The position numbers were made by a program, and so were the translations under genes. This document shows, piece by piece, positions 6,453-26,985 of a stretch of DNA of 62,853 nt. The DNA lies in NCBI GenBank assembly GCA_027021705.1, contig JALUTT010000018.1, forward strand, positions 1 to 62,853, written 5' to 3'. Position 1 is the stretch's first letter. Each line of letters opens with the position of its first letter. The notes under the pieces are model-generated. The model worked only from the letters and a program-made list of their open reading frames with translations, was not told where the DNA came from and did not search any database. This stretch comes from Anaerolineae bacterium. GTDB lineage: Bacteria > Chloroflexota > Anaerolineae > S140-20.

Positions 6453-7994
6453 ATGAAAGCCATCGCTATGAAACTGAAATCGCTGGCTTGTTACCGTGCC
6501 ATCAAGGCGAGCCTGCGTGCCCGCTTCGCCTTGGGCCTCGCTTTGCCCATCTTTCTGATGATGGCCCTGTTGTCTCTGGTGCACTCTCAACGCGAACGTC
6601 AGCTCTTTGAAGCGCAGCTTCGGCTCTCTTCTTCACAACTGGGTGATATGTTGATGGGGAGCCTGCGCCATGCGATGCTCACGGACGACCGTGCAATGAT
6701 CGGCGAGATCCTGGACAGCGTCGCGCAGATGGACACCATCCAGCGGATCCAGATCATTGACCTGAATGGGGAGGTAAGGGTGGACAGCGCGGGTCGGGAT
6801 GTGGGGAAGCGACATCGCGAAGGTGACCTGGGGTGTAAGGAGTGTCACCGATTCCCTCCCGAAGACCGTCCTCGCACGGCGAAGCTCATCGTCGCCTCGA
6901 ATGTGCTGCGGATTTCCACGCCCATCGCCAACGGGCCGGAGTGTGTCAGGTGTCATTCGGAGAAAAACGGACACCTCGGTGTGTTGCTAGTTGATGCCTC
7001 CCTCGTGGATTTTGAGAGGCATCTGTGGAACGATCTGAAGATCGAGGCGGTGATCACCCTGATGATGACGGTGGTGATCATCCTGGTGGTCTATGCGCTG
7101 GTCCATCGCCTCGTTATACGCCGGATGGTTGCCCTGAGCAGACCCCTGGCGAGGTTGGCTGCAGGGGACTTCTCCACCAGGCTCCCGGTCTCGTCGGGTC
7201 CTCCCGACGAATTGGACCGGTTGGCGGGCACCTTGAACAGGATGGCCGAGGAGTTGGAGCGCCACGTCCGTGAGCAGGAGGAGCACCATCAGTTGCGGGA
7301 ACAGGCGATCATTGAAGAGCGCGAACGGATTGCCCGCGAGCTGCACGACGGAATCGCCCAGCTCCTCGGGTATGTCAATACCAAAGCGATGGCAGTACGG
7401 TTGATGCTTAAGAACCAGAAGCTTGAGGCAGCCGACCAACAACTGTTTCAGCTCGAGGAGGCAGCCCGCCGGCTCTTTGTGGATGTGCGGGAGGCGATCC
7501 TGGGGTTGAGGATTGCGGGGCGTAATAAGGGCGCTAGCCTGGCCGCTACTTTGGAGGAGTTCACCATCCAGTTCAGCCGACTAAGTGGTCTGCCCGTTCA
7601 GCTCACGCTGGCCCCGGCGGTCGAAGACCTCTCGCTTAAGGCCGAGGTCGAACTGCACTTGATACGCATCGTCCAGGAAGCATTGGCCAACGTTCGCAAA
7701 CACGCGATGGCTACCAATGCTCAGGTGCGCTTGGAGGTTCACGATGGGACGCTAGAGCTCGAGGTTAGCGATAACGGTGTCGGCTTCGACCCCAACCATA
7801 TCCAGGCGGACCGCCGGCCCCATTTCGGGCTGTGCACGATGCGCGAGCGAGCCGAGGCGATCGGGGCCGAGTTTCAACTGGACTCTAGGCCGGGCGTAGG
7901 GACCCGCATTGTCGTGCGCCTGCCGCTTGAGAAATCGTCCCAACGATCAATGGTGAAGGAGGATGGACACAATGCGCGTGCTGGTAGCCGATGA
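6453..7994 (+). CDS. HAMP/HisKA_3 sensor histidine kinase with a diheme-c extracytoplasmic domain
   Basis: 2 TM helices; CKECH (6834-6848) and CVRCH (6942-6956) between them; HAMP; ERERIARELHD; QEALANVRKH; DNGVGF. Start uncertain (6453 or 6468). Confidence 0.9.
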   Translation: MKAIAMKLKSLACYRAIKASLRARFALGLALPIFLMMALLSLVHSQRERQLFEAQLRLSSSQLGDMLMGSLRHAMLTDDRAMIGEILDSVAQMDTIQRIQIIDLNGEVRVDSAGRDVGKRHREGDLGCKECHRFPPEDRPRTAKLIVASNVLRISTPIANGPECVRCHSEKNGHLGVLLVDASLVDFERHLWNDLKIEAVITLMMTVVIILVVYALVHRLVIRRMVALSRPLARLAAGDFSTRLPVSSGPPDELDRLAGTLNRMAEELERHVREQEEHHQLREQAIIEERERIARELHDGIAQLLGYVNTKAMAVRLMLKNQKLEAADQQLFQLEEAARRLFVDVREAILGLRIAGRNKGASLAATLEEFTIQFSRLSGLPVQLTLAPAVEDLSLKAEVELHLIRIVQEALANVRKHAMATNAQVRLEVHDGTLELEVSDNGVGFDPNHIQADRRPHFGLCTMRERAEAIGAEFQLDSRPGVGTRIVVRLPLEKSSQRSMVKEDGHNARAGSR

Positions 7995-8634
7995 TCACTC
8001 GCTGTTCCGTGACGGCATTATCAGCTTGTTGGAGGCGGCAGGGTTTGAGGTCGTCGGGCAGGTCGGCGACGGCCAAGCAGCCGTTGAGGCGGTGCTGCGC
8101 CTGCGCCCGGACCTGGTGTTGATGGACATCACAATGCCCCGAATGAGCGGCTTGGAGGCGTTGCGCATCATCAAGCAGATGTTGCCTGAGACCCAGGTCG
8201 TGATGTTGACCGTCTCCGATGACGATGCTGACCTCTTCGAGGCCATCAGATCGGGGGCCAGCGGCTACCTGCTGAAGAGCCTAAATGCTGAGGAGTTCCT
8301 GACGATGTTGAACGGCCTGCAGCGGGGTGAGGCGGCGATGACCCGGAAGACGACGGCCCGCTTGATCCGAGGGCTCACCGAGTCGTCTTCCCGGCCTCAG
8401 CATGATAGGTCGGTGCAGCGCCTGACCGAACGGGAGATAGAGCTTCTCCGGCTGGTGGCCGAGGGGATGTCGAACAAAGCCATCGCCCACGCCCTCTCGG
8501 TCAGCGAGAACACGGTCAAGTACCATATGAAGAACATCCTTCAGAAGCTGAACGCCCAGAACCGGACGGAAGCGGTTACCCACGCCATTCGCGCTGGATT
8601 GCTCGATCTGACCTCTACAGATGATGGCAAGTAG
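7972..8634 (+). CDS. NarL/LuxR family response regulator
   Basis: VADDH, LMDITMP, GYLLK, LTEREIELL..GMSNKAIA; AGGAGG RBS upstream. Confidence 0.95.
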   Translation: MRVLVADDHSLFRDGIISLLEAAGFEVVGQVGDGQAAVEAVLRLRPDLVLMDITMPRMSGLEALRIIKQMLPETQVVMLTVSDDDADLFEAIRSGASGYLLKSLNAEEFLTMLNGLQRGEAAMTRKTTARLIRGLTESSSRPQHDRSVQRLTEREIELLRLVAEGMSNKAIAHALSVSENTVKYHMKNILQKLNAQNRTEAVTHAIRAGLLDLTSTDDGK

Positions 8635-8830
8635 CCTGAGTTCTTCCAGGGGGCGTGGGACGGCTTGTCGGGCCGTCCCGCTTTGCTTCTGTACGGGGTG
8701 CGTCCGAGGCGTGTTGCTTCTCTTTTCTCCTTCTTGGCTCCCTGCGCTCGCGGCTGTGTAACCCGATTCACGGTGCCTGTTGGGTAAGGGTTGATCGGTC
8801 ATTGCGCCGCGATGGTGGCGGGAACCCTCC

Positions 8831-8871
8831 TACCCATTTGGGTAAATCTCCCCCCTCGCCCACCTAGGTGG
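8831..8871. promoter_or_regulatory. Candidate NarL-family operator palindromes
   Basis: TACCCA-TT-TGGGTA (8831-8844) and CCACCTAGGTGG (8860-8871). Confidence 0.45.
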
Positions 8872-8955: not shown

Positions 8956-9144
8956 TAAGGCGTAAATTTTGCGTAAAATTTCTCGAAGTAGCTGGCAGGA
9001 CGCCGGGACTGTGTGGGCTGGCAGATGTTGATTCCTGGCAAAACCCTGGGCCGCTTACCTGAATACTGGACAACTGCCCCCCGGCCAGATACCTTTGGGT
9101 GGGAATCAGCCATAGATAGTTGTCAGCCAGTCGAGGGGTGCAGA

Positions 9145-9516
9145 GTGCGGATATGCGTTGCCATTCTGTCAAGCCATTCGCTTTTTGCCGAAGGCGTTGT
9201 TAACCGGCTGCGCCAATACTTGCACGATGTGGAATTTGCGATTGTAGACCCCCGGCGGCCGGACGTGATGTCCCAAATCGCTGCTGTCTGCCCCACAGTT
9301 GTACTCCTGGATGTCACGGATCCTGCAACAACTCGGTTTTGCCCTTTGAGCAAGCTTCTACTAACCTTTCCAGAGCTTAAGGTGATACGCTTGGATCAGC
9401 AGCATGAGCAGATTCAGGTGCTGACCAGCGAACGCCGACCAGCCGTGAGGATCCGTGATCTGGTCGAGGTCATCGCTGCCAACGACTCGTCAGGTCCCAA
9501 GCAGGCCCACGTGTGA
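9145..9516 (+). CDS. Stand-alone degenerate receiver (REC-like) domain protein
   Basis: GTG start after GAGGGG; VAILSSHSLFAEGV resembles VLVADDHSLFRDGI of the neighbouring regulator; VVLLD. Confidence 0.55.
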   Translation: MRICVAILSSHSLFAEGVVNRLRQYLHDVEFAIVDPRRPDVMSQIAAVCPTVVLLDVTDPATTRFCPLSKLLLTFPELKVIRLDQQHEQIQVLTSERRPAVRIRDLVEVIAANDSSGPKQAHV

Positions 9517-9644: not shown

Positions 9645-10946
9645 ATGAGGATTGCTTCCCATCGGGATGGGAAGAACTCGATCTCGAAGGGCTGCCGATG
9701 GTTGGGAGTATTGGTTGTCCTGGTGGGGGTTCTGGGGTTGTTCGGATGGGCGTGGCGCGTTGAGGCAAGTGCGCCGTTCAGCCCGGTTTCGGTGGAAGGG
9801 GGTGTAGCCTCGGGGTCGGATCCTGATACCAACTGCCTGATGTGTCACTCGGACCCCGATTTCAAAGGCACCTTTCGGAATGGGGAATTGATCTCTCTGT
9901 ACGTTGACAAAGGAGAATATGAGCAATCGGTTCACGGGCCGGCCGGCTTGGAGTGTCTGGCGTGTCACACGAGCATCAGCCGCTACCCCCACCACGAGGA
10001 GGAGCAGGTCACCTGTGTGGCGTGCCACGGAGAGGCGGTGAGCAAGGGAAACATCACGTATGCGACCTTGCGGGTGCAGCTCCCCTACGCCGACCGTCGG
10101 GAGATGACCCTGACCATCAATGAGGCCTGCCGTTCCTGCCACGAGCGAGAGTTTGAGGTGGCCGGCGACAGCGCCCACGTGAGGGTGCTGCGGGGGGGGA
10201 ATCGGGAGGCCCCTGTCTGTGTGGATTGTCACGGCAGCCACGACATCACGCCGCCCGAGGAGCCCCGGGCCAAGATCTCTCACACCTGTGGGAAGTGCCA
10301 TCGTGCGGTCTACTCGACCTACCGCACCAGCATCCACGGGTCGGCTCTGGACCAGGAGTCAAACCCGGATGTTCCTACCTGTGTGGACTGCCACGGGGTG
10401 CACAGTGTCCGGGGACCGCGTGATGCTGCTTTCCGCAACGATAGCATCGCCATCTGCGGCGAGTGTCACGCCAACAAGGCTCTGATGGACAAGTACGGGA
10501 TCTCCACCAGCGTTTTCCAGACCTATCTGGATGATTTCCACGGTCGTACGGTGGATCTCTTCCGCCGCCAGCACCTGGGTATTCCCAGCAACAAAGCGGT
10601 CTGCTTCGATTGCCACGGCATCCACAATATCCGCCGGGTGGATGATCCCTTGTCCACAGTCTATCCGACCAACCTTCAGCACACCTGTCAGCAGTGCCAT
10701 ACCGATGCCAACATCCGGTTCCCACGGGCGTGGCTTGGTCACTACATTCCCACGCTGGAGGAGACGCCGGCGTTGTACGTCGTCAACCTGGCCTATCGCA
10801 TCTTGATCCCTTTGGTGATCGGTGGCTTCCTCCTCTATATTGGTTTGGATGCTCGCCGGCGGTGGCTTGACAGGCGTCAGATGGTACGCCAGGCCCTCGC
10901 TGAAGTGGAACTCGATGAATATGACTTCACCAACGATTTCTCCTAA
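9645..10946 (+). CDS. Decaheme c-type cytochrome with C-terminal TM helix (CbcL cytochrome c domain-like)
   Basis: Signal peptide; 10 CxxCH (CLMCH, CLACH, CVACH, CRSCH, CVDCH, CGKCH, CVDCH, CGECH, CFDCH, CQQCH); C-terminal TM. Confidence 0.9.
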   Translation: MRIASHRDGKNSISKGCRWLGVLVVLVGVLGLFGWAWRVEASAPFSPVSVEGGVASGSDPDTNCLMCHSDPDFKGTFRNGELISLYVDKGEYEQSVHGPAGLECLACHTSISRYPHHEEEQVTCVACHGEAVSKGNITYATLRVQLPYADRREMTLTINEACRSCHEREFEVAGDSAHVRVLRGGNREAPVCVDCHGSHDITPPEEPRAKISHTCGKCHRAVYSTYRTSIHGSALDQESNPDVPTCVDCHGVHSVRGPRDAAFRNDSIAICGECHANKALMDKYGISTSVFQTYLDDFHGRTVDLFRRQHLGIPSNKAVCFDCHGIHNIRRVDDPLSTVYPTNLQHTCQQCHTDANIRFPRAWLGHYIPTLEETPALYVVNLAYRILIPLVIGGFLLYIGLDARRRWLDRRQMVRQALAEVELDEYDFTNDFS

Positions 10947-11832
10947 CGCAGGTCACGACTACGAGGAAGAGCTGGCCTCGATCGAGCAGATCAAGCGGAA
11001 GGCACGGGCTCGCAAGTTACGAGCCGCTCGATCCCTTGCGGCCCGGATGCAGATTATGCCGGATGGCTCGCGGGTCTTCATCCGCTTCAACCGGACGGAG
11101 CGCTTTGAGCATCAGGTTCTCATCGTGACATTCACCACCCTGGCCGTGACAGGGTTGCTTCAGCGCTACAGCCAGCACCTCGTTGTTGGCTGGATCATCA
11201 ACCTCCTGGGTGGGGTGGAGACGATGCGCACGCTTCATCACTTGGCGGCCTTCGTCTTCATCCTAGAAGCGGTGTACCACACCTGGCGGATTCTGGTGAT
11301 CTGGTTTGTCAAGCGAGAACGCGGTGCGATGTGGCCCTCGCTGCGCGATTTTCGGGACCTGGTGCATATGGTGAAGTTCAACCTGGGTCTGGTGGATCAC
11401 CGACCGGAGTTTGACCGCTTCACCGTCGAGGAGAAGCTGGAGTATTGGGCATTGCTGTGGGGGGCACCCCTGATGATCATCACCGGACTGATGATGTGGT
11501 TCCCGGTCACCGTGACCTCGGTGTTGCCCGGTGATGCAATCCCGGTGGCTCGGGCCTTGCACGGTTGGGAAGCGATTTTGGCTACCCTGTCCATCCTGAT
11601 CTGGCACATGTACCATACCGTCATCAAGGAGCGAAACAGGAGCATCTTCACGGGCATTATGACGGAAAGGGAGATGCAGCACGCGCATCCCTTGGAGTAC
11701 CGGCGCATCCTGGCAGCCTACGCCTATCTTCAGAAGGTCGCTGCAGAGGAGATGCCCACCGAGGAAGGTCCAACCCATCCCCAAAAGATCCTGGCAGGGA
11801 CCGGTTATGAAGCGACCCAGGGTGTTGGATGA
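10915..11832 (+). CDS. Cytochrome b subunit (FdnI/HydC family; CbcL b-domain-like)
   Basis: RFNRTERFEH, LHH, EKLEYW, ITGLMMW, LHGWEAILA, WHMY; four TM helices with His ligands. Confidence 0.88.
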   Translation: MNMTSPTISPNAGHDYEEELASIEQIKRKARARKLRAARSLAARMQIMPDGSRVFIRFNRTERFEHQVLIVTFTTLAVTGLLQRYSQHLVVGWIINLLGGVETMRTLHHLAAFVFILEAVYHTWRILVIWFVKRERGAMWPSLRDFRDLVHMVKFNLGLVDHRPEFDRFTVEEKLEYWALLWGAPLMIITGLMMWFPVTVTSVLPGDAIPVARALHGWEAILATLSILIWHMYHTVIKERNRSIFTGIMTEREMQHAHPLEYRRILAAYAYLQKVAAEEMPTEEGPTHPQKILAGTGYEATQGVG

Positions 11833-13402
11833 ACAGGCCATCGCTGTAGATGAACAGATCATTGTGGACGAGCAGGCCATCGAGGAGTATGGCGAGGCGG
11901 CTTCCGTCCTTGTCGAGCCCCGGCCATACCGGCGTAGGCTCCGATGGCCGAAGGTGGTCATTGACCTCAGCCGTCCCAAGCATCGGCTGAACCTGCTCAT
12001 AGCCCTTGGGGTTCTGCTCCTGGTGGGCCTTGTCTTCCTGTTCAGCGGATACCAAGTCTACACCTACACCGAAAGCGCCGAGTTCTGTGGCACGGTCTGC
12101 CATCCGATGAAGTCGGAGTTCGTCCGTTACGAGCGCTCCCCGCACGCCAATGTCGAGTGCGCCAAGTGCCACATCGGGCCGGGGGCTTCCTTCTTCGTCA
12201 GATCCAAGATTGACGGGCTGAAGCAGGTGGTGGCCGTCCTGGCAAACAGCTACAGCCGCCCTATCAAGAGCCCTGTCTACAACCTGCGTCCTGCCCGGGA
12301 GACGTGTGAGGAGTGCCATACACCCACCCTCTTCCGCGACAACATCATTAAGACGATCGTCCACTACGACAACGATGAGGCCAACACACCGGTCCAGTCC
12401 ACCCTCATCCTAAAGATGGGAGGATGGCGGGAGAGCACAGGGGTCAGCGAAGGCATCCACTGGCACATTACCAACCCGGTCTACTACATCGCTGCCGATG
12501 AACAGCGACAGGTAATCCTGTGGGTGGGCGTAGAGCAGGAAGATGGGACGCTGAAGGAGTTCTATGCCCGAGATATGCTCAATATGGCTTGGACCGAGTT
12601 TGTGGAGGAAGCGCGTGCCAGGGGAGAGATCCGCAAGATGGATTGTATAGACTGCCATAACCGCACCGCCCACTTCATCCCTCCGCCAGAGGTGGTTGTG
12701 GATGAGGCCATCAGCGTAGGGAAGATCTCCAGGAAACTGCCCTACATTCGGGCCAAAGCGGTTGAGGTGCTGTCGGTAGAGTACGCCAGCGAGGCCGAGG
12801 CCTATGCTGCCATAGAAGGGCTTCTAGACTTCTACCGGGTAGGGTACCCGGAAGTGTACACCAAGTATCGCGCTGAGCTGGATGCGGCCATCGAGGAGCT
12901 CAAGCGGATCTACAGCAGCACCAACTTCCCCGATATGCGGTTGAGTTGGCGGACCAACCCCAACAACGAACGCCACACGCCTTTCCTGGGATGCTTCCGC
13001 TGCCACGATGGCAAACACGTCAACGTGGACAAATCGGGGAATGAGGTGGAGGTTATCAGCGTTAAGTGCAATCTTTGCCACACCGTCCCCATTGTCGGGC
13101 GGGGCGACGATATGCTCGTAGAGGCCCCGGTCATCGTCGGGTCTGTACCGCCCTCCCATTCAGACTTCCGATGGACCATCGAACACCGTTCGGTGACCGA
13201 GGAGGAGAGGCAGGAGTGCTACCAGTGCCACGGACAGGGCTTCTGTAGCAACAGCGTGTGTCACAATCTCTCGCATCCTCCGGATATGCTCTTCACCCAT
13301 GCCGAGGAGTATCGCAAGACGGGGAATCAGGTCTGCTACACCTGTCACCAGGATATTCTGTGTAGCCGTTGCCATCCAGGCGGCATAGTGTCCAATCCTT
13401 AG
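11807..13402 (+). CDS. imcH: ImcH-like NapC/NirT family membrane multiheme cytochrome c
   Basis: TES..FCGTVCH, SPHA.VEC..CH.GPGA, NLRPARETCEECH, GIHWHI, MDCIDCHNR, GCFRCHDGKH match recalled Geobacter ImcH motifs; 8 CxxCH + CX3CH + CX4CH. Confidence 0.8.
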   Translation: MKRPRVLDEQAIAVDEQIIVDEQAIEEYGEAASVLVEPRPYRRRLRWPKVVIDLSRPKHRLNLLIALGVLLLVGLVFLFSGYQVYTYTESAEFCGTVCHPMKSEFVRYERSPHANVECAKCHIGPGASFFVRSKIDGLKQVVAVLANSYSRPIKSPVYNLRPARETCEECHTPTLFRDNIIKTIVHYDNDEANTPVQSTLILKMGGWRESTGVSEGIHWHITNPVYYIAADEQRQVILWVGVEQEDGTLKEFYARDMLNMAWTEFVEEARARGEIRKMDCIDCHNRTAHFIPPPEVVVDEAISVGKISRKLPYIRAKAVEVLSVEYASEAEAYAAIEGLLDFYRVGYPEVYTKYRAELDAAIEELKRIYSSTNFPDMRLSWRTNPNNERHTPFLGCFRCHDGKHVNVDKSGNEVEVISVKCNLCHTVPIVGRGDDMLVEAPVIVGSVPPSHSDFRWTIEHRSVTEEERQECYQCHGQGFCSNSVCHNLSHPPDMLFTHAEEYRKTGNQVCYTCHQDILCSRCHPGGIVSNP

Positions 13403-14388: not shown

Positions 14389-14394
14389 GCGCAT

Positions 14395-15606: not shown

Positions 15607-15787
15607 GTCATATCGGTGTGCTAGCGCGAGCGGCTCCCCGATCATGGCCAACGATTGGATGGGGGTTCAACGGGCCACGAGCACACGCCGTAAAGAAAGG
15701 AGGTGGTAGGGGCAGAAGCACAGATTACGGACTTCATACCATCGGCCACACATTGTGAGAACAGTTTGGGAGATGGGAGGTAGAGAG

Positions 15788-18128: not shown

Positions 18129-18159
18129 GAGGCCCGCCTTGGGTACAAGGAGTAGTCCC

Positions 18160-19243: not shown

Positions 19244-22200
19244 TTGAAACGCAACGATGGGAACGGACGGACCAGCCTCAGGGAAAAGATGATGAAGCAT
19301 CCTCGCAACGGCACTCCATGGCAACCACGTACTCACAACAAGGAGCGGATCCGGCTTCTCAGAACGCTCCGCCGGAGCCACGCTCTCACCCGAATGGCCG
19401 TCCTCTCCCTGACCATCCTGGGACTGTACTTCTCCCTCCTCGTCGGTGGGGTGCCGACCATTGGGGCCGAGCAGGCCCCCACGGAGACCCCGACCCCTGA
19501 CATGGGTACGGTGACGGGGGTGCCCACCAGCGCTCCCTTGGACGAGGAAGACGGCACGACTACCGCCACGCCGACGGTGACCTCCACGCCGTTCATCACC
19601 CCGACGGCGACGCCGGCCTGGACCGCCACACCTCCGGTGACCCCCACGGAGGTCATCACGCCGACGGTGGTGTCTTCGACCCCTGTCCTCCCGACGGTCA
19701 CGCCCACCGAGCCCTTTACCCTGACGGTCCCCCCCTCAACGCCGGACACCCCAACCCCTGTGCCGACGGAGCCTATTACCCTGACGGCAACCCCTTGGCC
19801 GGTGGAATCGCCGTCGGCGACTCCAGTCTCCAGCCCCTCCGTTCCGGTGACCTCGACGGCGACGCCCACCGAGACGGCTGAGCCCACAGCATCGGTCACG
19901 CCAACGGTCCCGCCTGCTCCGTCGGCCACGCCGACGATCACCCCTACGCCTGCGGTCACCGTCACCGTGACCGTGACGCCCACGGAGACCACGGTGCCGG
20001 AGGTCTCGCCTACCGTCACGGTCACCCCGATCGTTACGCCAACGCCGGTGGCGTTCGAGGGTAGCTACGTGCCGGATGAGGTGCTCGTCCGCTTCCTGCC
20101 GTTGCCGCTCCCAGGGTTTTCGGCCACGACAGCGGCGGCCCTCGCCGAGACTCATAAGATCGAGGTGGAAGGCACTCTGAGCCGCCTGGGCGTGTGGGTG
20201 ATGAAGGTCCCACCGGGCCAAGTCGAGCAGGTTGTCTCGGACCTCCGGCAGGATCCGAGGGTCCTGTTCGCTGAACCTAACTACATCGCCCGAGCCTACC
20301 TCACCCCCGACGATCCCAGTTGGCCGCTGCAGTCCTACCTGTCGAACATCCAGGCCCCTCAGGCGTGGGATGTAACGACGGGATCGCCGGAGGTGGTTAT
20401 CGCGGTAGTGGACACCGGTGTGGACCTCACCCATCCCGACTTGGTGAACAAGATCTGGCACAACCTGGGGGAGATGGGGCTGGACGCCGAGGGCAACGAC
20501 CGGCGCACCAACGGCGTGGACGACGACGGCAACGGCTACGTGGACGACTGGGTGGGGTGGAACACCGTTGCCGGCACGGGTGATGTGCAGGATGACCACG
20601 GTCACGGCACCTATGTGGCCGGCGTGGCCGCTGCCGATACCAACAATGGGCAGGGGATCGCCGGGGTCTCCTGGGGGGCGCGGATTATGCCGGTAAAGGT
20701 GCTGGATAGCACCGGTTTCGGTACCTATGCTCAAGTGGCTGCGGGCATCATCTACGCCACCGACCAAGGGGCGCGGATCATCAATCTGAGCCTCGGGGGC
20801 ACGGAGCCCAGCGCCCTGCTCGAGGCTGCCATCGGGTATGCTGCCGCCCACGGCGTCACCGTGATCGCGGCCACCGGCGATTCGGGGACCTCGGGCGTGA
20901 GCTATCCGGCGGCCTATCCCAGCGTGATTGCCGTCGGGGCGACCGATGGTAACAATCAGATCGCCCCCTTCTCCACCTTCGGCGACGCGGTGGACCTGGT
21001 AGCCCCTGGGGTGGACGTCTACTCCACCTATCCGGGCGGTTACGCCCAGTTCTCGGGTACCTCGGTGGCTGCGGCCCACGTCTCGGGGGTGGCTGCCCTC
21101 TTGGCCAGCCTGCCGGCCTTCGATACCCCGGACAAGATCCGGGCGGCGCTGGAGGCGACGGCCCTCGACTTGGGGGAGCCGGGTTGGGATCCCTATTACG
21201 GGTTTGGTTTGGTGCAGGCCTACGATGCATTGACCCAGCCGCCCCCGGTTGGCCCGACGCCCACGCCCACCCCCACGGCGACGCCGGGGCCATCGCCAAC
21301 CCCGACGGCGACGCCGACGCGAGGGCCGACGCCCACCCCGTCGGGGGGTGGTGGTGTACGCGCTTTGGTCACCGAAGAGCTGTGGGCCACGGCACAGGAC
21401 TGTGATTATCCCATCACCGATCCGGCGAACAGCATTGACCTGGCCTTCAACGATCTGGTGGCCTCCTGCACGGGGGATTTTGGGAGGGACAGGACGAGTT
21501 GGACCTATACCGCCTTCCAAGATACGACGCTGGCTACCATCGTGATGGTAACGCTGGACGTGCGCTTCTACATGACGGGCTGGGTGGATGATCGCATTGA
21601 TCTGGAGATCTTCAACGGGGATCGCTGGTACCGGCTGGCCCGTTTCGAAGGTGGGGAGGAAACGCCGCCGGGGACGTTGACCACCCTTTCCTACGATGTC
21701 TCATCGTGGTTCACCACACCCGCCGAGGTCAATGCGGCTCAGTTGCGCTTCCGAGGGCGCAGGAGGAACGGCGGTACGGATACCATCACCATCTACCTGG
21801 ATGAGGCTCGCCTCAATGCCAGTGATGTGATTCCCACACCCACGCCGGCGCCGCCCCTACCGACGCCGACATCCCCGCCACCGGCGCCCACCGACGTGCC
21901 TATTGCCGGGGATCCTCACGTGGATTACAGCCCGACGACCGACAGTTGCGCGGCCTGCCACCGTTCCCACACCGCCTACGGCATGGTGCTGCGCCAGGCG
22001 TGGCCGGAAGAGGATCTCTGCTTCGGCTGCCATACCGATGGCGGCACGGGCACCAACGTCCAGCCGGCCTTCACCAGCTACACCAATACTTCCACCCGCA
22101 TCTTCAAGCACGACATCGCCGCCACCAATGGTGTCCATCGGATCGGGCAGACCACCGGTGCCGACTTCGGAGGAACCAGCCGGCACGTGGAGTGTGAGGA

Positions 22201-23065
22201 CTGCCACGAGCCCCACGAGGCCACCCGTGGTCCGTCCGATGCCCCGATGCTCCAGCGGGAGATGAACTACGCCTCGGGTGTGGATCCGGTCTGGACAGGG
22301 CCCGGTGCGCCGACCTCCTACGTCTGGCTGCAGCAGGCCGAGCGGGAGTATCAGGTCTGCTTCAAGTGCCACTCCAGCTTCACCACCCTCCCCACCTACG
22401 TACCTGACGGCTGGGATGGTAGCCAGTATGTGGCCGATGGCCTGCGCAAGCTGACCAGCACCGATCCCAACCAGGTGCTGGACAGCCGGGATATGGCCCA
22501 GGAGTTCAACCCTTACAACGCCAGCTTCCATCCGGTGGTGGCCCAAGGTCGGAACCAGTCCATCCCGGCGGGGAGTTTCGTCACCGGCTGGTCGCAGACC
22601 AGCATGGTCTACTGCACCGACTGCCACAGCAGTGCCGACCCCACTCAGGGGGATGGTCCTCACGGTTCTCCTCTGTTGCACCTCCTTACCGGCAATGGTG
22701 GGCAGACGAACTACGTCACAGCACCGGGGGGCTGGGTGACCATCACCAGCGATTGGGTCTGCTTCAAGTGCCACCGGTACGAAACCTACGTTTCAGGCAC
22801 CGACCCTTCCACCAACACCAACTTCCGCAGGGGCAACCGTAACCTGCACGAATTGCACTCCGACCGACGTAACGTGCCCGATGCCTCGTGCTATGCCTGC
22901 CACGACTCCCACGGCAGCGAGCAACTGCACCTGATCAACTTCGACGCGAGCTGGGGTGGGGGCATCACTTTCCTGAATGGCCGGAACAGCCAGACAGCCT
23001 GGACCGGCAACAGCTGCTACCTCGTCTGTCACGGCAGAGATCACTCCAACATCACGTATCCCTGA
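19244..23065 (+). CDS. S8 subtilase / octaheme cytochrome c fusion with Pro/Thr linkers
   Basis: Hydrophobic N-terminal segment; ~200 aa P/T tract; prodomain (YVPDEVLVRF..AEPNY); VVDTG, HGT, SGTS triad; C-terminal 7 CxxCH + CYLVCH. Start uncertain. Confidence 0.85.
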   Translation: MKRNDGNGRTSLREKMMKHPRNGTPWQPRTHNKERIRLLRTLRRSHALTRMAVLSLTILGLYFSLLVGGVPTIGAEQAPTETPTPDMGTVTGVPTSAPLDEEDGTTTATPTVTSTPFITPTATPAWTATPPVTPTEVITPTVVSSTPVLPTVTPTEPFTLTVPPSTPDTPTPVPTEPITLTATPWPVESPSATPVSSPSVPVTSTATPTETAEPTASVTPTVPPAPSATPTITPTPAVTVTVTVTPTETTVPEVSPTVTVTPIVTPTPVAFEGSYVPDEVLVRFLPLPLPGFSATTAAALAETHKIEVEGTLSRLGVWVMKVPPGQVEQVVSDLRQDPRVLFAEPNYIARAYLTPDDPSWPLQSYLSNIQAPQAWDVTTGSPEVVIAVVDTGVDLTHPDLVNKIWHNLGEMGLDAEGNDRRTNGVDDDGNGYVDDWVGWNTVAGTGDVQDDHGHGTYVAGVAAADTNNGQGIAGVSWGARIMPVKVLDSTGFGTYAQVAAGIIYATDQGARIINLSLGGTEPSALLEAAIGYAAAHGVTVIAATGDSGTSGVSYPAAYPSVIAVGATDGNNQIAPFSTFGDAVDLVAPGVDVYSTYPGGYAQFSGTSVAAAHVSGVAALLASLPAFDTPDKIRAALEATALDLGEPGWDPYYGFGLVQAYDALTQPPPVGPTPTPTPTATPGPSPTPTATPTRGPTPTPSGGGGVRALVTEELWATAQDCDYPITDPANSIDLAFNDLVASCTGDFGRDRTSWTYTAFQDTTLATIVMVTLDVRFYMTGWVDDRIDLEIFNGDRWYRLARFEGGEETPPGTLTTLSYDVSSWFTTPAEVNAAQLRFRGRRRNGGTDTITIYLDEARLNASDVIPTPTPAPPLPTPTSPPPAPTDVPIAGDPHVDYSPTTDSCAACHRSHTAYGMVLRQAWPEEDLCFGCHTDGGTGTNVQPAFTSYTNTSTRIFKHDIAATNGVHRIGQTTGADFGGTSRHVECEDCHEPHEATRGPSDAPMLQREMNYASGVDPVWTGPGAPTSYVWLQQAEREYQVCFKCHSSFTTLPTYVPDGWDGSQYVADGLRKLTSTDPNQVLDSRDMAQEFNPYNASFHPVVAQGRNQSIPAGSFVTGWSQTSMVYCTDCHSSADPTQGDGPHGSPLLHLLTGNGGQTNYVTAPGGWVTITSDWVCFKCHRYETYVSGTDPSTNTNFRRGNRNLHELHSDRRNVPDASCYACHDSHGSEQLHLINFDASWGGGITFLNGRNSQTAWTGNSCYLVCHGRDHSNITYP

Positions 23066-23223: not shown

Positions 23224-26200
23224 ATGGTGGTTCCTATGGTGACTTCTGCGGTTTTCCTCACGCCTCGACGGCACATCCGGTCTCGGGGGAGGAGGCAGAT
23301 CAGACAGGGGCTGGGTCGGGGATTGCACCTTCTCGCTCGGGCCATCCTGTTGATGGCGCTGGTGACGACGATCATCCCGGTTCCAGGGATCTATGCGGCC
23401 ACCTTCGACGTGAATGACCCAAATGATGCCGGGGATACCTCTCCGGGCGACGGAATCTGTGACAGCGACGAGGCTTCCCCCGGCCCCCAGTGTACGTTGC
23501 GCGCCGCCATCGAAGAGGCCAACGCCCTGCCGGGTCCTGATACCATCAATCTGGCTGCGGCCGGCCCCTACTACCTGACCGAAGGCGTGCTCACGGTCAC
23601 CAGCGAGATCACCCTGAACGGCAACGGAGAGACCATCAGTGCAGGTGGGCTCTCCCGTATCTTTTTGGTGGAAGGGGATGGCGTGCTCTCGTTGGACGGC
23701 GTGACCCTTCGGGATGGTGTGGGGGATGAAGGTGGCGCGATCCACGTTCGACCGGGGGGAACGCTGTACATCTCGAACAGCGCCATCGTCAACAACGCGG
23801 CGGTCAACACGGAGTCCAGCTCTGGCGGCGGCATCAACAACTGGGGGGGCACGGTCACCATCGTCAACACCACCATCTCCGGCAACCGGGCCAACGCCGG
23901 CGGTGGTGGCATTGCGAACCTGACCGCTTACGAGGGGGGCAGCTTTGTTTACGGCACGATCACCCTGACCCACGTGACGATCACCGACAACATCGCCGAT
24001 TTCGACGGGTCCGATGGCAACAGTCACGATGGTGGGGGGATCTTCACCTTTGGGATGCTCAATGTCGGGAGTTCCATCATCGCCGGCAATGTGGACAATA
24101 GCCCCGCCTTAGGCACGGTCTACCCCGATTGTGTCAACTGGTATTACCTCACTACCCAGCAGTACAACCTGATCGGGGATAACACCGGCTGTGATGTACC
24201 GTACCCCGCCGACGACCCGACCAGCTACTTCCCGCCGGGCACCCCCAATGACAACCACGACTTCGTCGGTACCGGCGACGCGCCCCTAGACCCGCTGCTC
24301 GGCGATCTGACCGGCAACCCGGCCTATCACCCGCCCCTGGCCGGCAGCCTGGCCATAGACCAGATCCCCGCGGATGCCTGCTCGGTCACCAGAGATCAGA
24401 TCGGGACGCCTCGCCCCCAGGGGACGGCCTGCGACATCGGTGCTGTGGAGGTCGCCTCCCAGGTGGACCTGAGCATCACCAAGACGGTCACCCCCACCCT
24501 CCCCGTCGCGCCGGGCCAGAGGGTCACCTACACCCTCACCTTCAGCAACCAGGGCGAGGGCATCGCCCCTGAGGTCGTCATCACCGACATCGTTCCGGTG
24601 ACCCTGACCCACGTCAGCGTCATCAGCAGCGGCGTGACCGTGACGGATACCGGGGTGAGGCCGGGCTTTGTGTGGGGCGTGGAGGACCTCTCGCCGGGCG
24701 AGGGCGGGATCATCACCATCAGCGGTCGGATCAGCGAGAGCCTGATTGCCGCGACCATCTTCACCAACACCGCCGTCATCGCTACCAGCGCTCAGGATTC
24801 TGACGCCGACAACAACGAGGCCGCTGTGGGGGTGACGGTGATCCCCCACGAGTCCGAGTGGTCCGACTTTTGCCTTCTCCAGCGGATGGAGATCACGGGC
24901 ATCGGGATGGGAGATCGTTACGGTGCCATCAACCCCCAGACTATCTCCCTGTCCGATCCGGATGGGGTGAATTGGCTGTTGGTCCAGGTCGCCGGACGAC
25001 GAGCCTTTGGGGCACCGATCCCGGACCAGGTGGTCCTGACTCCCGATCGGCCCCCGTCGTTCACCCTCTACCAGCCTCACCGCAGCAGCCCACACGGCTA
25101 CACCTTTGAGGCGAACCTGCGCCCGACGAACCAGATCACGGCCTTCGTCAGCAACGTGGGGGAGGACTACAAGACGCCTCGGGGCCTGGTGCTGTACAGC
25201 AAGCGGGCTACTGTGGACCGCTGGACCTCCGTCGGCAGGACCGCCAACAAGTTCATCTACCGAGGATGGAAGGGCTCCCACACTGAGGTGCTGACCTTCC
25301 CGCCGTTGCAGAGCGCGACGGACCTCTTCGCCACCGCCGTGGTCATTGACAACGATGATGATGCCCGCCCGATTGTGGTCACGGCGGAGGCCGGAGGGGT
25401 GACCGACACCGTGAGCATCCTCGGTTCCTCGGACGGTCCGGGTCTGAACATCGTTCGCCTGGCCCTCCCCCAGGTACCCACCGGAACCCAGCAGATCAGC
25501 ATCACGGTCCAGTCGCCGACCAGCAACGGCGATTCGATGGTCCTGACGGGGGTAGACGTTAGCTTCTCGTGCGAGAGGCCAACCGGTGCGGTGGTGCGCG
25601 TCGAGCCCTCACCGGCGACGATCCCCCTGGGGGCGACCCGCTTGTTGACCGTGACGGTGGACCCCGGCTCGGCCCAGGTCAACGGTGTGCAGATCCACGG
25701 TCAGGTGGACCCCGCATACCTGCACCTGGTGGATGTCCGGCCCAGTGGGACCCTGACGGTGGAGCTGGACCCCGTGGCCTTTGACCCCACGACGGGGGAG
25801 TTCCGCTACGGGGCGAGCCTCCTCGACGGCGTCATCACCGAGCCCTTCCCGGTGCTGACCCTTGAGGTCCAGGCGGTAGCTCTCACCGATGGAACCTGGG
25901 TTAAGTTCCTCGACGAGCCCCCGCCGACCGACGTCAGCGGTCCCGACGGCAGCGTGATGAGCCAGGCCCAAGATGGGTTGGTCATCGTGACGCAGGCTCC
26001 TGTCCTCCGTGGATCGGTGGATATGCAGGGCCGTCCTCCCAAGCCTGCACCCCCCTGGGCGATCCCGTTGACGGTTTGGCTCTCACCGCCGGGGGATACG
26101 ACCCCGATCTACACCGCGACCGTCACCACCAACCAATATGGCGAATTCACCCTTGCCCTGGGCGATCTCCCCTCTGGTCCGTACGATGTCCGGTTGAAGG

Positions 26201-26985
26201 GCAACCATACCTTGCGCAACCTGGCTCCGGCGGTCCCTCTGGAGGTGGGGGATAACCGCTACTTCTTCGGCACGCTGTTGGAAGGGGATGTCGAGACGGT
26301 AGGCACCTTCAACTGGGTATGGTGGCCCGATGTCTGGGTGATGGCCGGCTCCTTTGGCCGATGTCGAGGGTCGCCGGGCTTCGTGGCCAACGCGGACCTG
26401 GACGAGAGTGGATGCGTGTGGTTACCCGACTTTGGCCTGCTGGCGGGCAACTTCGGCAAGGCCGGAGACATCGTCGTCACTCCCACGGTCACCTCCCAAG
26501 CGGTGTTGCGCCCGGCGGACGGTGGTGGACCGTGGTTGCTGTTCAATGCCGAAGAGGTGCAGGTTGCGGTCGGTGAGGTGGTGACCCTATCCCTCGATCT
26601 GGACCCCGAAGATCGGCCGACCAACGGTGTGATGGCCCAACTGCGCTTCGACCCCGATCTGGTCGAGGTGATGGACGTCACACTCACCGACCGCCTGCCC
26701 TTGGTCTTGATGGAACCGGTGGTGGACGACGAGCAGGGGACGGTGCGCTTTGCGGCGGGGGTTCTTGGTCGGACCCTCACCGAGCGGTTCACCGTTGCTC
26801 GCCTCACGGTAAAGGTGAAGGCAGCGACCACCGGGACGGCCATCGCGTTGGTGGATCTGCCCACCGCGACCGACGTCAGCGGTCCCGAGGGGCGCATTCA
26901 AGTGAAATGGAAAGGGGTGACGCTCAGGACGGAGGCCCAGGCATCGCCGGAGCATCTCCTCTACCTGCCCCTTGTGACCCGGTAG
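23224..26985 (+). CDS. CSLREA / choice-of-anchor Q / DUF11 / cohesin / dockerin-like surface protein
   Basis: CTLRAAIEEAN; GGGI beta-helix repeats; DQIGTPRPQGTACDIGAVE; DLSITK..VTYTLTFSN; two cohesin-like domains; ADLDESG.V...DF; C-terminal YLPLVTR. Confidence 0.8.
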   Translation: MVVPMVTSAVFLTPRRHIRSRGRRQIRQGLGRGLHLLARAILLMALVTTIIPVPGIYAATFDVNDPNDAGDTSPGDGICDSDEASPGPQCTLRAAIEEANALPGPDTINLAAAGPYYLTEGVLTVTSEITLNGNGETISAGGLSRIFLVEGDGVLSLDGVTLRDGVGDEGGAIHVRPGGTLYISNSAIVNNAAVNTESSSGGGINNWGGTVTIVNTTISGNRANAGGGGIANLTAYEGGSFVYGTITLTHVTITDNIADFDGSDGNSHDGGGIFTFGMLNVGSSIIAGNVDNSPALGTVYPDCVNWYYLTTQQYNLIGDNTGCDVPYPADDPTSYFPPGTPNDNHDFVGTGDAPLDPLLGDLTGNPAYHPPLAGSLAIDQIPADACSVTRDQIGTPRPQGTACDIGAVEVASQVDLSITKTVTPTLPVAPGQRVTYTLTFSNQGEGIAPEVVITDIVPVTLTHVSVISSGVTVTDTGVRPGFVWGVEDLSPGEGGIITISGRISESLIAATIFTNTAVIATSAQDSDADNNEAAVGVTVIPHESEWSDFCLLQRMEITGIGMGDRYGAINPQTISLSDPDGVNWLLVQVAGRRAFGAPIPDQVVLTPDRPPSFTLYQPHRSSPHGYTFEANLRPTNQITAFVSNVGEDYKTPRGLVLYSKRATVDRWTSVGRTANKFIYRGWKGSHTEVLTFPPLQSATDLFATAVVIDNDDDARPIVVTAEAGGVTDTVSILGSSDGPGLNIVRLALPQVPTGTQQISITVQSPTSNGDSMVLTGVDVSFSCERPTGAVVRVEPSPATIPLGATRLLTVTVDPGSAQVNGVQIHGQVDPAYLHLVDVRPSGTLTVELDPVAFDPTTGEFRYGASLLDGVITEPFPVLTLEVQAVALTDGTWVKFLDEPPPTDVSGPDGSVMSQAQDGLVIVTQAPVLRGSVDMQGRPPKPAPPWAIPLTVWLSPPGDTTPIYTATVTTNQYGEFTLALGDLPSGPYDVRLKGNHTLRNLAPAVPLEVGDNRYFFGTLLEGDVETVGTFNWVWWPDVWVMAGSFGRCRGSPGFVANADLDESGCVWLPDFGLLAGNFGKAGDIVVTPTVTSQAVLRPADGGGPWLLFNAEEVQVAVGEVVTLSLDLDPEDRPTNGVMAQLRFDPDLVEVMDVTLTDRLPLVLMEPVVDDEQGTVRFAAGVLGRTLTERFTVARLTVKVKAATTGTAIALVDLPTATDVSGPEGRIQVKWKGVTLRTEAQASPEHLLYLPLVTR

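Follow-up and report, generated by a model that had tools for sequence, protein, structure and literature searches.

A multiheme cytochrome locus of an Anaerolineae bacterium that looks built for exporting respiratory electrons through distant relatives of OmcS

Results

Gene content and host of the locus

The stretch of DNA that was analyzed, referred to as the window, has 62,853 bases and comes from a member of the Chloroflexota, as the preliminary description had proposed, and more precisely of the class Anaerolineae, given that all eight organism-named matches among the best 120 for valS belong to this class. Likewise, the six organism-named matches among the best 120 for a window cytochrome are all from Chloroflexota/Anaerolineae. 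The forward-strand ORFs carry 50 heme-binding motifs (47 CXXCH, two CX3CH, and one CX4CH), which agrees with the approximately 50 announced earlier. All 47 CXXCH motifs lie within positions 6834-22889, and the only other one in the six frames of the window is found on the reverse strand at 18913, a clustering that is far beyond chance expectation. Thirteen co-oriented ORFs of at least 100 amino acids are contained in the interval 6453-26985, while the fourteenth of the 14 genes originally counted, a GH5-like ORF (26907-29300), merely starts inside it. The domain content given beforehand for the sensor, the regulator, the TPR and NHL proteins, and the protease-cytochrome fusion was found as described. 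Domain models match neither porin families nor a catalytic reductase subunit among the 14 cluster proteins, and the catalytic heme motif CXXCK occurs in none of them. Motif and domain searches also bear out the claim that the cluster holds no porin and no small triheme cytochrome of the PpcA type, and heme-maturation genes were not found inside the window. All features described below are on the forward strand.

Regulatory genes

The cluster opens with a sensor histidine kinase (6369..7994, likely starting at the ATG at 6453) with HAMP, HisKA_3, and HATPase_c domains and a NarQ/NarX-like C-terminal half. Its two CXXCH motifs, at residues 156 and 192, lie in the outward-facing sensor domain, N-terminal to the helix that precedes HAMP, and are kept in all five close full-length orthologues (from the related loci L001, L005, L016, L025, and L029). 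The NarL/LuxR-type response regulator that follows (7963..8634; Response_reg 1.1e-28, GerE 4.1e-22; 3.1e-53 to the NarL model, which is under its curated cut-off) is also found 3' of the kinase in L001, L005, L010, L016, and L025. Just 3' of the regulator, a terminator-like hairpin (8655..8691; 12-pair stem with eight G-C pairs, T-rich tail) probably marks the boundary between the two regulatory genes and the structural ones. The region has 10 terminator-like sites versus a mean of 9.9 in shuffles, so that this call relies on position and stem length only.

Between 8634 and 9645 the only further supported ORF encodes a small conserved protein (9013..9516, its true start probably downstream of 9013) with counterparts at the same position in L001, L005, L010, and L016. 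This protein has no Pfam or NCBIfam match, and its Atlas neighbors are clusters of about 120 amino acids, most often from Chloroflexota. A structural match to response-regulator families (TM 0.50) offers a lead that it may possibly have a receiver-like fold.

Putative quinol-oxidizing membrane modules

The next two genes encode a decaheme c-type cytochrome with a C-terminal membrane helix (9645..10946; 10 CXXCH, cytochrome c7/c3 and paired-CXXCH domains) and an FdnI/HydC-like membrane cytochrome b (10822..11832, likely start near 10915; Ni_hydr_CYTB 2.1e-11, and 1.4e-15 to the formate dehydrogenase gamma model, under its cut-off). Of the 75 longer relatives of the cytochrome b, 62 are single fused proteins to which the decaheme and the cytochrome b align in that order, the decaheme corresponding to the N-terminal part (e.g., 45% identity over 347 amino acids with P0253). 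At least four CXXCH are present in 67 of the 75 longer relatives, and in 59 of the 75 the hemes are N-terminal to the b domain. At the level of features, this fits the CbcL-like module of the preliminary description and suggests a CbcL-type quinol oxidase split in two genes, with the decaheme as the putative heme half and the cytochrome b as the putative quinol-facing half. The approximately ten c-type hemes and the FdnI/HydC-type b domain are shared with Geobacter CbcL as published, which differs from the two-gene unit of the window.

The gene at 11807..13402 encodes a protein with a single helix (residues ~63-83), a CX3CH motif at residue 94, eight CXXCH, one CX4CH, and an N-terminal region similar to NapC/NirT (2.7e-14); the CX3CH after the single helix is kept in all seven Chloroflexota orthologues. 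These features, the CX3CH among them, are those published for ImcH, and the earlier label of a membrane-anchored, ImcH-like multiheme quinol oxidase appears well chosen. Geobacter ImcH, as described in the literature, has the same CX3CH beside a membrane helix, NapC/NirT-like stretch, additional CX2CH motifs, and length of about 500 amino acids, but three helices instead of one. One-helix forms are among those published, for Anaerolinea thermophila and Intrasporangium.

TPR and NHL proteins

Two membrane-anchored proteins are encoded next: a TPR protein (13426..14388; many TPR models), in which basic residues precede an N-terminal hydrophobic helix as read from its sequence, and an NHL-repeat beta-propeller (14395..15606; NHL 1e-28, six-bladed propeller 1.9e-13), also with an N-terminal helix. 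Their neighborhood was compared in 66 related loci, 49 of which are from Chloroflexota, Actinomycetota, Bacillota, and 'Deinococcota' and 17 from other phyla. The TPR gene adjoins the NHL gene in 34 of the 49 versus none of the 17, and an NHL gene lies at most 300 bp from an OmcS-family gene in 36 of the 49 versus six of the 17. In the 13 loci of the single-membrane phyla without an adjoining NHL match, some contigs are truncated. The triad of TPR, NHL, and OmcS-like genes is also present in cultured Neobacillus.

The synteny check that had been suggested for this locus shows that the order kinase, regulator, small protein, decaheme, cytochrome b, ImcH-like protein, TPR, NHL, and hexaheme recurs in L001, L005, and L010; in L025 it is kept with the small protein undetected, and in L002, L008, and L016 it is kept partly.

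Small cytochromes of the OmcS superfamily

Three secreted cytochromes follow: the hexaheme CytA6 (cytA6, 15755..16783; six CXXCH, signal peptide ending at ASA|NGGPHGG) and the heptahemes CytB7 (cytB7, 16870..17928) and CytC7 (cytC7, 18139..19203), each with seven CXXCH. The heptahemes have 70% identity and are sisters in the tree, in which CytA6 belongs to a clade of 12 rows, all from Chloroflexota, that has a support of 100. Proteins of Desulfuromusa (L055) and Desulfosudis (L059), found in the search for relatives of a window cytochrome, match OmcS of the PDB at 2.6e-66 and 1.5e-79, respectively. The profile of the window family (A1, first sequence CytB7) was aligned with hhalign to an OmcS-clade profile of 14 proteins (A2), which gave a probability of 99.85% and an E-value of 8.8e-31 over 274 columns, near end to end, with the six heme motifs in the same order and the seventh motif of CytB7 between hemes 4 and 5 of OmcS. 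In the merged alignment, both clades show 98-100% conservation in the columns of the six CXXCH motifs and of the histidine at +3 of motifs 1, 3, and 5. Given that each clade has three further conserved histidines at nearby positions, there are six candidate distal ligands for six hemes, three of which occupy different alignment columns in the two clades.

An AlphaFold2 model of mature, heme-free CytA6 (pLDDT 79.6) has OmcS (6ef8_A) as its sole PDB fold match at E <= 0.001 (E 6.8e-4, probability 0.97), with a modest superposition (TM 0.42 by query and 0.33 by target, rmsd 13.5). The fold search with an earlier model from a shallower alignment (pLDDT 58.4) found nothing. Profile and fold comparisons together indicate that the homology of the three small cytochromes to OmcS is clear although remote, as had been anticipated.

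The family is large: a threshold of E <= 0.001 yields 3163 cluster representatives, and one of E <= 1e-30 yields 496. Its first motif is CxxCHxxH in 115 of 121 ORFs, 79 of the 121 being hexahemes; as this motif is kept across the superfamily, it does not separate filament formers from non-formers. Filament structures are published for OmcS and are not known for its Geobacter paralogues OmcT, OscC, and OmcJ.

Protease-heme fusion and neighboring surface protein

The gene at 19244..23065 encodes an S8 subtilase (Peptidase_S8 7.3e-58, fervidolysin-type prodomain; catalytic motifs DTG, HGT, and GTS readable in the sequence) with a C-terminal OmcS-related heme domain carrying seven CXXCH and one CX3CH; Pro/Thr-rich linkers and a domain with no assignment lie between the two. 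The C-terminal domain matches A1 in the N-terminal signature (98.2%, 51 columns) and A2 in the region of hemes 4-6 (96.9%, 122 columns). This type of fusion also occurs in L001, L010, L025, and L029, and nine further loci have the seven-heme domain with other N-terminal parts. The large surface protein that follows (23224..26985; choice-of-anchor Q and DUF11), was previously included in the cluster as an adhesin. None of the 66 related loci encodes a counterpart of it, and it therefore adjoins the system with its membership unsupported.

Discussion

Comparison with known systems

The window cytochromes share with OmcS of Geobacter sulfurreducens (PDB 6EF8) the order of six heme motifs, CxxCHxxH at the mature N-terminus, the CHDPH and CH(R/V)AH motifs, a similar size, Sec export, and the best fold match, while the identity is only ~17-27% and two of the three paralogues have a seventh heme. 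A beta-propeller gene beside the cytochrome is also found in some two-membrane relatives. In the two-membrane locus L059, the OmcS homologue is flanked by a PPIase, a YNCE-type propeller, and LpoB/GNA1162-like lipoproteins, which by their order look like OscH, OscD, and OscE-G as these are presented in a citing paper (PMC13194489). Such folding-helper and channel-type genes are absent from the triad loci and from the window cluster, so the assembly route, if any, must differ; instead of these osc-type genes, the window has the TPR protein and the membrane-anchored NHL propeller, and its system has no outer membrane to cross.

Another published counterpart is CwcA of Thermincola (Tfer_0075 / TherJR_1122), described as a single-membrane hexaheme cytochrome and remote OmcS homologue with 18% identity, which acts in the pathway ImdcA-PdcA-CwcA-OcwA and was modeled in 2021 as an OmcS-like polymer running through the peptidoglycan and fed by a membrane decaheme (PMC7911101). 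As presented there, CwcA was never purified or imaged and could not be kept soluble, which its authors read as a tendency to polymerize; the main text makes no mention of NHL (PMC7911101). On this published description, the likeness is that of a hexaheme OmcS-like cytochrome in a single-membrane bacterium; the window has, in addition, modules of the ImcH type and of a split CbcL type as well as the protease fusion. A locus from a Thermincola ferriacetica MAG (L057) reads TPR, NHL, hexaheme, NHL, hexaheme; the published cwcA primers have no match in it, indicating that its genes are other members of the family.

NHL propellers that are co-located and co-expressed with multiheme outer-surface cytochromes, and proposed to stabilize the cytochrome complex, are described for Desulfovibrio ferrophilus (DFE_0448-0451 and DFE_0461-0465; PMC5815863). 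The likeness is one of NHL neighborhood, and these clusters differ by their two-membrane host, their function linked to electron uptake, and the lack of a TPR partner in the account given by that source (PMC5815863). The fusion protein has a parallel of its own. Maturation of OmcZ in Geobacter is carried out by the subtilisin-like protease OzpA. By analogy, the occurrence of a subtilase in a locus for nanowire-type cytochromes may point to proteolytic maturation, with the differences that protease and heme domain are here one polypeptide and that the heme domain is related to OmcS and not to OmcZ.

Proposed mechanism and alternatives

Gene content, homologies, and the recurrence of the cluster in related genomes are what was observed, and from them we infer filament formation and electron transfer to metals, electrodes, or other species. 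That this is an extracellular electron transfer locus in which quinol modules feed a stacked heme wire of OmcS-family subunits, with outward flow, we consider reasonably probable. The heme-bearing kinase and the NarL-type regulator would switch the genes on according to the redox state outside the cytoplasm. The split CbcL-type unit and the one-helix ImcH-type cytochrome would oxidize menaquinol and hand the electrons to their own heme domains at the outward side of the membrane, from which the Sec-exported cytochromes, one hexaheme and two heptahemes, would accept them. These would stack head to tail like OmcS, the histidine of CxxCHxxH, three residues past the first heme motif, ligating a heme of the next subunit, and the resulting wire would run through the wall and perhaps beyond. 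The TPR protein and the NHL propeller may form an assembly or anchoring platform in place of the parts that serve outer-membrane secretion in the osc system of Geobacter. The subtilase-heme fusion could act as a maturation protease or else process itself and become a terminal or anchor subunit, its cleavage being purely conjectural.

The same export pathway could operate without wires, with OmcS-family proteins sitting as monomers or short oligomers in the wall or the surface layer and passing electrons to shuttles or to acceptors that are soluble, chelated, or colloidal, and with the TPR and NHL proteins merely holding the cytochromes at the membrane. This is rather unlikely in our estimation, but it has several observations in its favor: the filament-signature motif is universal in the family and hence non-diagnostic, many relatives are fused to long additional heme domains with 11-26 hemes, which suits surface reductases and wire subunits alike, and both accessory proteins are membrane-anchored. 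The known surface reductase of Thermincola, OcwA, is not known to form filaments. Nonetheless, six heme motifs and six candidate distal histidines are kept, including the one that OmcS donates to its neighbor, where one axial ligand of heme 5 is supplied by the adjacent subunit (PMC6584659); the insolubility of CwcA, as interpreted by its authors (PMC7911101), and a wall tens of nanometers thick that must still be crossed also argue for the wire.

An inward pathway, in which Fe(II), reduced minerals, cathodes, or partner cells would supply the quinone pool with electrons, is judged unlikely. It would accord with the occurrence of CbcL/MtoC/MtrH-type proteins in Fe(III) reducers as well as Fe(II) oxidizers (PMC6295460), with the anodic and cathodic electron transfer reported for Ardenticatena maritima (PMC5808234), and with the link of the D. 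ferrophilus NHL-associated cytochromes to electron uptake (PMC5815863). As of 2018, however, the ImcH homologues described were only in Fe(III) reducers (PMC6295460), domain models find no Cyc2-type or other recognized iron-oxidase gene in the cluster, and no feature of the window indicates a downstream acceptor pathway. Soluble nitrogen or sulfur respiration, with a nitrite, hydroxylamine, or sulfite reductase and an NrfH-type anchor in place of extracellular electron transfer, is highly improbable: a weak, sub-threshold likeness to NrfH (2.8e-14), NrfB, and cytochrome c552 models and the NarX/NarL-like regulatory pair are set against the lack of CXXCK in the 14 proteins and of NrfA, molybdopterin, or siroheme subunits in the domain-model search, NCBIfam matches to named reductase subunits that are all far under the curated cut-offs, and the homology of the small cytochromes to OmcS.

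Significance

The preliminary statement that no such system was known to be characterized in this phylum is too strong, and the novelty of the locus is lowered accordingly, because it is preceded by the electrode respiration of Ardenticatena maritima (Chloroflexi), with a seven-heme cytochrome reported as cell-surface-localized (PMC5808234), by the ImcH homologue of Anaerolinea thermophila published in 2018 (PMC6295460), and, in another single-membrane bacterium, by the CwcA model (PMC7911101). What is new is the conserved triad of TPR protein, NHL propeller, and OmcS-like cytochrome in Chloroflexota, Actinomycetota, and Bacillota, in which the first two are likely conserved accessory factors. 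The core genes of the cluster are common to other single-membrane bacteria. Judged by its genes, the locus looks built for exporting respiratory electrons through distant relatives of OmcS; sequence does not fix the direction of flow, but outward flow is the most likely, with Fe(III)/Mn(IV) minerals, humics, electrodes, or partner cells as the recipients.

Composition of the Gene Cluster

Twelve co-oriented ORFs occupy positions 6369-23065 of the forward strand, and two further large ORFs follow them on the same strand (23224-26985 and 26907-29300). Together, these 14 ORFs hold 47 CXXCH, two CX3CH, and one CX4CH heme-binding motifs, that is, the approximately 50 that the preliminary description had reported, and chance does not explain this pattern. 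The 47 CXXCH are all confined to 6834-22889, and reading every frame of the window adds a single one, on the reverse strand at 18913. The 14 genes placed earlier within 6453-26985 correspond to 13 ORFs of at least 100 aa contained in these limits and a 14th that merely starts inside them.

The cluster opens with a sensor kinase (6369-7994) that has HAMP, HisKA_3, and HATPase domains and two CXXCH in its outward-facing part, followed by a NarL/LuxR-type regulator (7963-8634) and a 12-pair hairpin (8655-8681). A small conserved protein with no Pfam family is encoded between the regulator and the decaheme gene (9013-9516). Its Atlas neighbors fall in clusters of about 120 aa that are commonest in Chloroflexota, and the resemblance of its Atlas model to receiver domains is weak (TM 0.50); it may be a third signaling component. 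A decaheme cytochrome with a C-terminal helix (9645-10946), an FdnI/HydC-like cytochrome b (10822-11832), and an ImcH-like protein (11807-13402) come next, and then a TPR protein (13426-14388) and a six-bladed NHL propeller (14395-15606), each with an N-terminal helix. Three secreted cytochromes of 342-354 aa carry six (cytA6, 15755-16783), seven (cytB7, 16870-17928), and seven hemes (cytC7, 18139-19203), and the twelfth ORF encodes a fusion of an S8 protease with a heme domain (1273 aa, 19244-23065).

None of the 14 proteins matches a porin family in Pfam or NCBIfam, a search that a very divergent barrel could escape, while each ORF of the cluster is otherwise assigned; nor is there a small triheme cytochrome among them, and the absence of both a porin and a PpcA-type shuttle is thus borne out. 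The choice-of-anchor-Q/DUF11 protein (23224-26985), previously counted as the adhesin of the system, has no counterpart in 66 loci that hold relatives of the window cytochromes (handles of the form L001), and it was dropped from the system because of this lack of conservation. A counterpart of the weakly GH5-like protein (26907-29300) was likewise found in none of the 66 loci. Both of these neighboring proteins, which are large and secreted, finish with YLPLV, two more residues (TR or RK), and the stop codon (26962-26985 and 29277-29300). No other C-terminus of this kind exists in any frame of the window, and none occurs among the ORFs of at least 200 aa of the 66 loci. This ending may act as a sorting or anchoring signal at the C-terminus, of an undescribed kind.

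Host and Flanking DNA

The partial valS gene (61085-62851) shares 78-86% identity with the best of its named relatives, and all eight organism-named sequences among the best 120 matches are from Anaerolineae, Anaerolineales, Caldilineae, or "Chloroflexi", which confirms the placement of the host. The six organism-named cytochrome matches among the best 120 are also from Chloroflexota or Anaerolineae. The flanks are ordinary chromosome, with glycosyltransferases, tsaE/tsaB, lgt, a CCA-adding enzyme, and valS. Cytochrome c maturation genes are found neither in these flanks nor beside the relatives in L041, L047, and L057, where only unrelated genes occur. A GmrSD-type restriction endonuclease gene (34451-36052, reverse strand) coincides with the lowest GC of the window (0.556 versus approximately 0.65 elsewhere), and this stretch is probably a small acquired defense island. 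Nucleotidyltransferase, HEPN, and HepT-like genes (1502-2047, 49063-49935, and 51638-52120) are dispersed among polysaccharide genes and look like toxin-antitoxin-type pairs.

Relationship of the Small Cytochromes to OmcS

Searches of the PDB with the single sequences of cytB7 and cytA6 did not match OmcS. A profile of 57 family members with cytB7 first (A1) matched OmcS (6EF8) with an E-value of 5.4e-5, in partly collinear pieces. The genome scan seeded by A1 gave the 66 loci, and proteins from the distant loci of Desulfuromusa (L055) and Desulfosudis (L059) match OmcS over the full length (2.6e-66 and 1.5e-79, respectively). When A1 was compared by hhalign with an alignment of 14 proteins of this latter kind (A2), a probability of 99.85% and an E-value of 8.8e-31 were obtained over 274 aligned columns, covering residues 29-351 of 359 versus 49-374 of 390, with all six OmcS heme motifs paired in order. 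Both clades conserve the six CXXCH columns of the merged alignment at 98-100%, and likewise the histidine at position +3 of motifs 1 (CxxCHxxH), 3 (CHDPH), and 5 (CHxAH). Each clade has three additional conserved histidines, whose positions differ between the clades by 5-25 columns of this alignment. Per clade, this makes six histidines that are, from sequence, candidate distal ligands for bis-His ligation of the six hemes. The seventh heme of both heptahemes is an insertion between OmcS hemes 4 and 5. A collection of 121 family ORFs includes 115 with CxxCHxxH as the first motif and 79 hexahemes.

The histidine of CxxCHxxH is, reportedly according to Wang et al. in 2019, the ligand of OmcS heme 5 that a neighboring subunit donates, and the N-terminal residue given in this way is presumably His16. 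In OmcS, one axial ligand of heme 5 is supplied by the neighboring subunit (PMC6584659). A complex prediction with two mature cytB7 chains and four hemes gave a median of 0.38 versus a mark of 0.42, with controls at 0.00, and was counted neither way.

The AlphaFold2 model of cytB7 built on the 57-sequence alignment was poor (pLDDT 58.4), with no meaningful Foldseek match, and was replaced by modeling with 106 sequences from all clades (A3). The resulting model of mature cytA6 reached a pLDDT of 79.6 and a pTM of 0.81, and Foldseek against the PDB placed 6ef8_A first, as the sole match at E ≤ 0.001 (E 6.8e-4, probability 0.97, 17% identity), ahead of an undecaheme cytochrome of Carboxydothermus (E 0.94) and OmcE (E 1.8). 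The model thus finds the OmcS fold as its top match, though with a modest TM of 0.42/0.33, given that the model is heme-free and this fold is dictated by the hemes. The homology of the small cytochromes to OmcS is well supported by the profile alignment, the shared motifs and histidines, and the fold match, in agreement with the label that they had received. The family is large, with 3163 representatives at E ≤ 0.001, 1382 at 1e-10, and 496 at 1e-30 among 1.84 billion clusters searched.

Quinol Modules

ImcH as published combines three helices and six CX2CH with an atypical CX3CH adjoining the membrane domain and a stretch that resembles NapC/NirT, and one-helix homologues are described from Anaerolinea thermophila and Intrasporangium calvum (PMC6295460). 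The window protein is of the one-helix form and does not have three N-terminal helices. Its N-terminal region is NapC/NirT-like, and its helix (residues ~63-83) is closely followed by a CX3CH at residue 94 and then by eight CX2CH; it also contains the CX4CH. The arrangement of a helix and then CX3CH is kept in all seven Chloroflexota orthologues. In NCBIfam only sub-threshold matches to NrfH, TorC, and NapC are obtained, and the ImcH-like label was upheld by the published list of features, namely the CX3CH next to the helix and the CX2CH series.

For CbcL, a single chain is described that has nine c-heme motifs in front of a HydC/FdnI-like membrane domain (PMC6295460). In the window, by contrast with CbcL, MtrH, and MtoC, the unit consists of two adjacent genes (9645-10946 and 10822-11832). 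The cytochrome b domain matches PF01292 above the cut-off (2.1e-11) and TIGR01583 below it (1.4e-15). Among 75 longer relatives of this cytochrome b, 67 have at least four CXXCH, 59 have the hemes N-terminal to the b domain, and 62 also align with the window decaheme, in order; one such fused relative (P0253) is 45% identical to both window halves. The decaheme and the cytochrome b are, on these alignments, a split CbcL-type unit, because both genes align in order to single proteins. The CbcL-like label is supported at the level of features, with an FdnI/HydC b domain and with two genes in place of a single chain; the Geobacter proteins were compared by their description.

The Protease-Heme Fusion

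The product of 19244-23065 has a fervidolysin-type prodomain, Pro/Thr-rich linkers, and an S8 subtilase with recognizable DTG, HGT, and GTS motifs; besides an unassigned domain, it contains a heme domain at the C-terminus with seven CXXCH and one CX3CH. The first 51 residues of the heme domain match A1 at 98.2% with 49% identity and keep the signature PH..Y..TTD.C..CHR.H, and residues 157-301 match the region of hemes 4-6 of A2 at 96.9%. By these profile matches, the heme domain is a divergent member of the OmcS superfamily. The fusion is also present in L001, L010, L025, and L029, and in L012, L014, L017, L018, L020, L028, L033, L035, and L038 the seven-heme domain is joined to different N-terminal parts. 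Another kind of long relative is encoded at L002:7401-13938, L003:2261-9661, L005:9851-17155, and L057:12331-18771, where an OmcS-like N-terminal domain is followed by long heme regions with 11 to 26 CXXCH in 617-2147 aa.

Conservation Across Phyla

Synteny, a check that the preliminary description had proposed, was sampled at one genome per species and shows the order kinase, regulator, small protein, decaheme, cytochrome b, ImcH-like, TPR, NHL, and hexaheme again in Chloroflexota at L001, L005, and L010. The same order is found in L025, where the small protein was not detected, and part of it in L002, L008, and L016. An NHL-like ORF at most 300 bp from an OmcS-family gene is present in 20 of 27 Chloroflexota loci, 8 of 13 in Actinomycetota, 7 of 8 in Bacillota, and the single 'Deinococcota' locus (36 of 49 combined), and a TPR ORF next to the NHL gene in 20, 8, 5, and 1 of them (34 combined). 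In the 17 loci from other, mostly two-membrane, phyla, the counts are six for NHL and zero for TPR. Of the 49 loci, 24 have the ImcH-like gene, and the pair of decaheme and cytochrome b is confined to Chloroflexota (9/27 loci). Short contigs account for several of the misses.

A quick maximum-likelihood tree of 92 rows, from which 28 others had been dropped (other heme counts, short domains, and fragments), places the two-membrane OmcS clade in one group of 18 rows (support 99) and cytA6 in a clade of 12 that is exclusive to Chloroflexota (support 100). The heptahemes are sister paralogues within a 32-row clade of Chloroflexota and Actinomycetota (support 100).

Five loci belong to cultured Bacillaceae, namely Neobacillus niacini, N. 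vireti, N. drentensis (twice), and N. jeddahensis (L047, L049, L050, L052, and L053). Their block encodes two membrane-anchored proteins with 10 and 12 hemes, an NHL propeller, two to three OmcS-family hexahemes, and a seven-heme protein, and a TPR protein was detected by blastp in three of the five loci. As tractable hosts, these organisms could allow the module to be tested. In N. niacini, a full-length SecA gene lies directly upstream of the block (L047:998-3508, reverse strand) and a gene for a SEC-C-motif protein directly downstream. The 7-kb contig L007, labeled as a Deinococcus sp. MAG, carries TPR, NHL, and two hexaheme genes whose products share 39-47% identity with the window proteins and group within the clade of Chloroflexota and Actinomycetota, which points to a binning error or gene transfer.

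Comparison with Known Systems

A nitrite reductase of the NrfHA kind would contain a catalytic pentaheme subunit with CXXCK. This reading was rejected because the 14 window proteins have no CXXCK; the scores for NrfH, NrfB, and c552 are also far below the curated cut-offs. In the two-membrane locus L059, the genes around the OmcS homologue encode a PPIase, two propellers (a small one and a YNCE-type one of 480 aa), a protein of 743 aa that belongs to no family, and two lipoproteins similar to LpoB/GNA1162. The arrangement is reminiscent of the published osc operon, in which OscH reportedly acts in folding, the channel-like OscE-G in secretion, and the propeller OscD in morphology (as cited in PMC13194489). 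Of such companions the window has a propeller only: the small propeller of L059 resembles the window NHL protein (blastp E 1e-6), and the PPIase, LpoB/GNA1162-like, and YNCE-type families are matched by none of the 14 proteins in Pfam and NCBIfam. NHL propellers beside surface cytochromes have been noted in Desulfovibrio ferrophilus (PMC5815863).

Among single-membrane bacteria, CwcA of Thermincola was modeled on OmcS as a wall-spanning polymer and was never purified (PMC7911101). An identity of the L057 hexahemes with the published CwcA is not supported, as its peptide words were not found and the published cwcA primers are absent from the locus; the Thermincola genes seen there are probably other members of the family. 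Ardenticatena maritima respires iron and electrodes, its seven-heme cytochrome is reported as localized to the cell surface, and its authors presume a single membrane (PMC5808234); Anaerolineae are described as rich in multiheme cytochromes (bioRxiv 10.1101/2021.08.23.457424). The calls of the components in the preliminary description were largely right; the filament formation and the novelty for the phylum that it claimed exceed the evidence. In the literature searched, no paper describing the Chloroflexota cluster or the triad of TPR, NHL, and OmcS-like proteins was found; the survey by Shen et al. 2025, which reportedly covers osc clusters across phyla, may overlap with the conservation described above.

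Meaning of the Cluster

The locus is real and well conserved, probably serves electron export, and represents a version of the OmcS system for single-membrane cells rather than a categorically new one. What is observed are the components and homologies; beyond these, an electron path with an outward direction, a head-to-tail polymerization of the cytochromes into filaments, and the roles of the TPR, NHL, and protease proteins are proposed. A tentative reading, which we consider rather doubtful, is that the TPR protein, the NHL propeller, and the OmcS-like cytochromes form a dedicated nanowire assembly system free of an outer membrane and common to Chloroflexota, Actinomycetota, and Bacillota, including the cultured Neobacillus. 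If this were true, OmcS-type heme filaments would be an old and widespread single-membrane trait and not a specialty of Geobacter, the membrane-anchored propeller would be the part common to two-membrane systems, and the protease-heme fusion would be a self-cleaving cap or anchor subunit.

To our knowledge, cytochrome nanowires have been solved from few organisms only, and electron passage through a thick wall without an outer membrane rests mainly on one unverified homology model, that of Thermincola CwcA. Direct tests of sequence and fold on this locus connect the Anaerolineae, an abundant environmental group, with the OmcS family, and TPR and NHL emerge as a conserved accessory pair in three single-membrane phyla. 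Given that cultured Neobacillus carry the module, single-membrane OmcS-type wires and their assembly become testable. If they prove real, mineral respiration and direct interspecies electron transfer would be attributed to a wider set of organisms in sediments, digesters, and aquifers.
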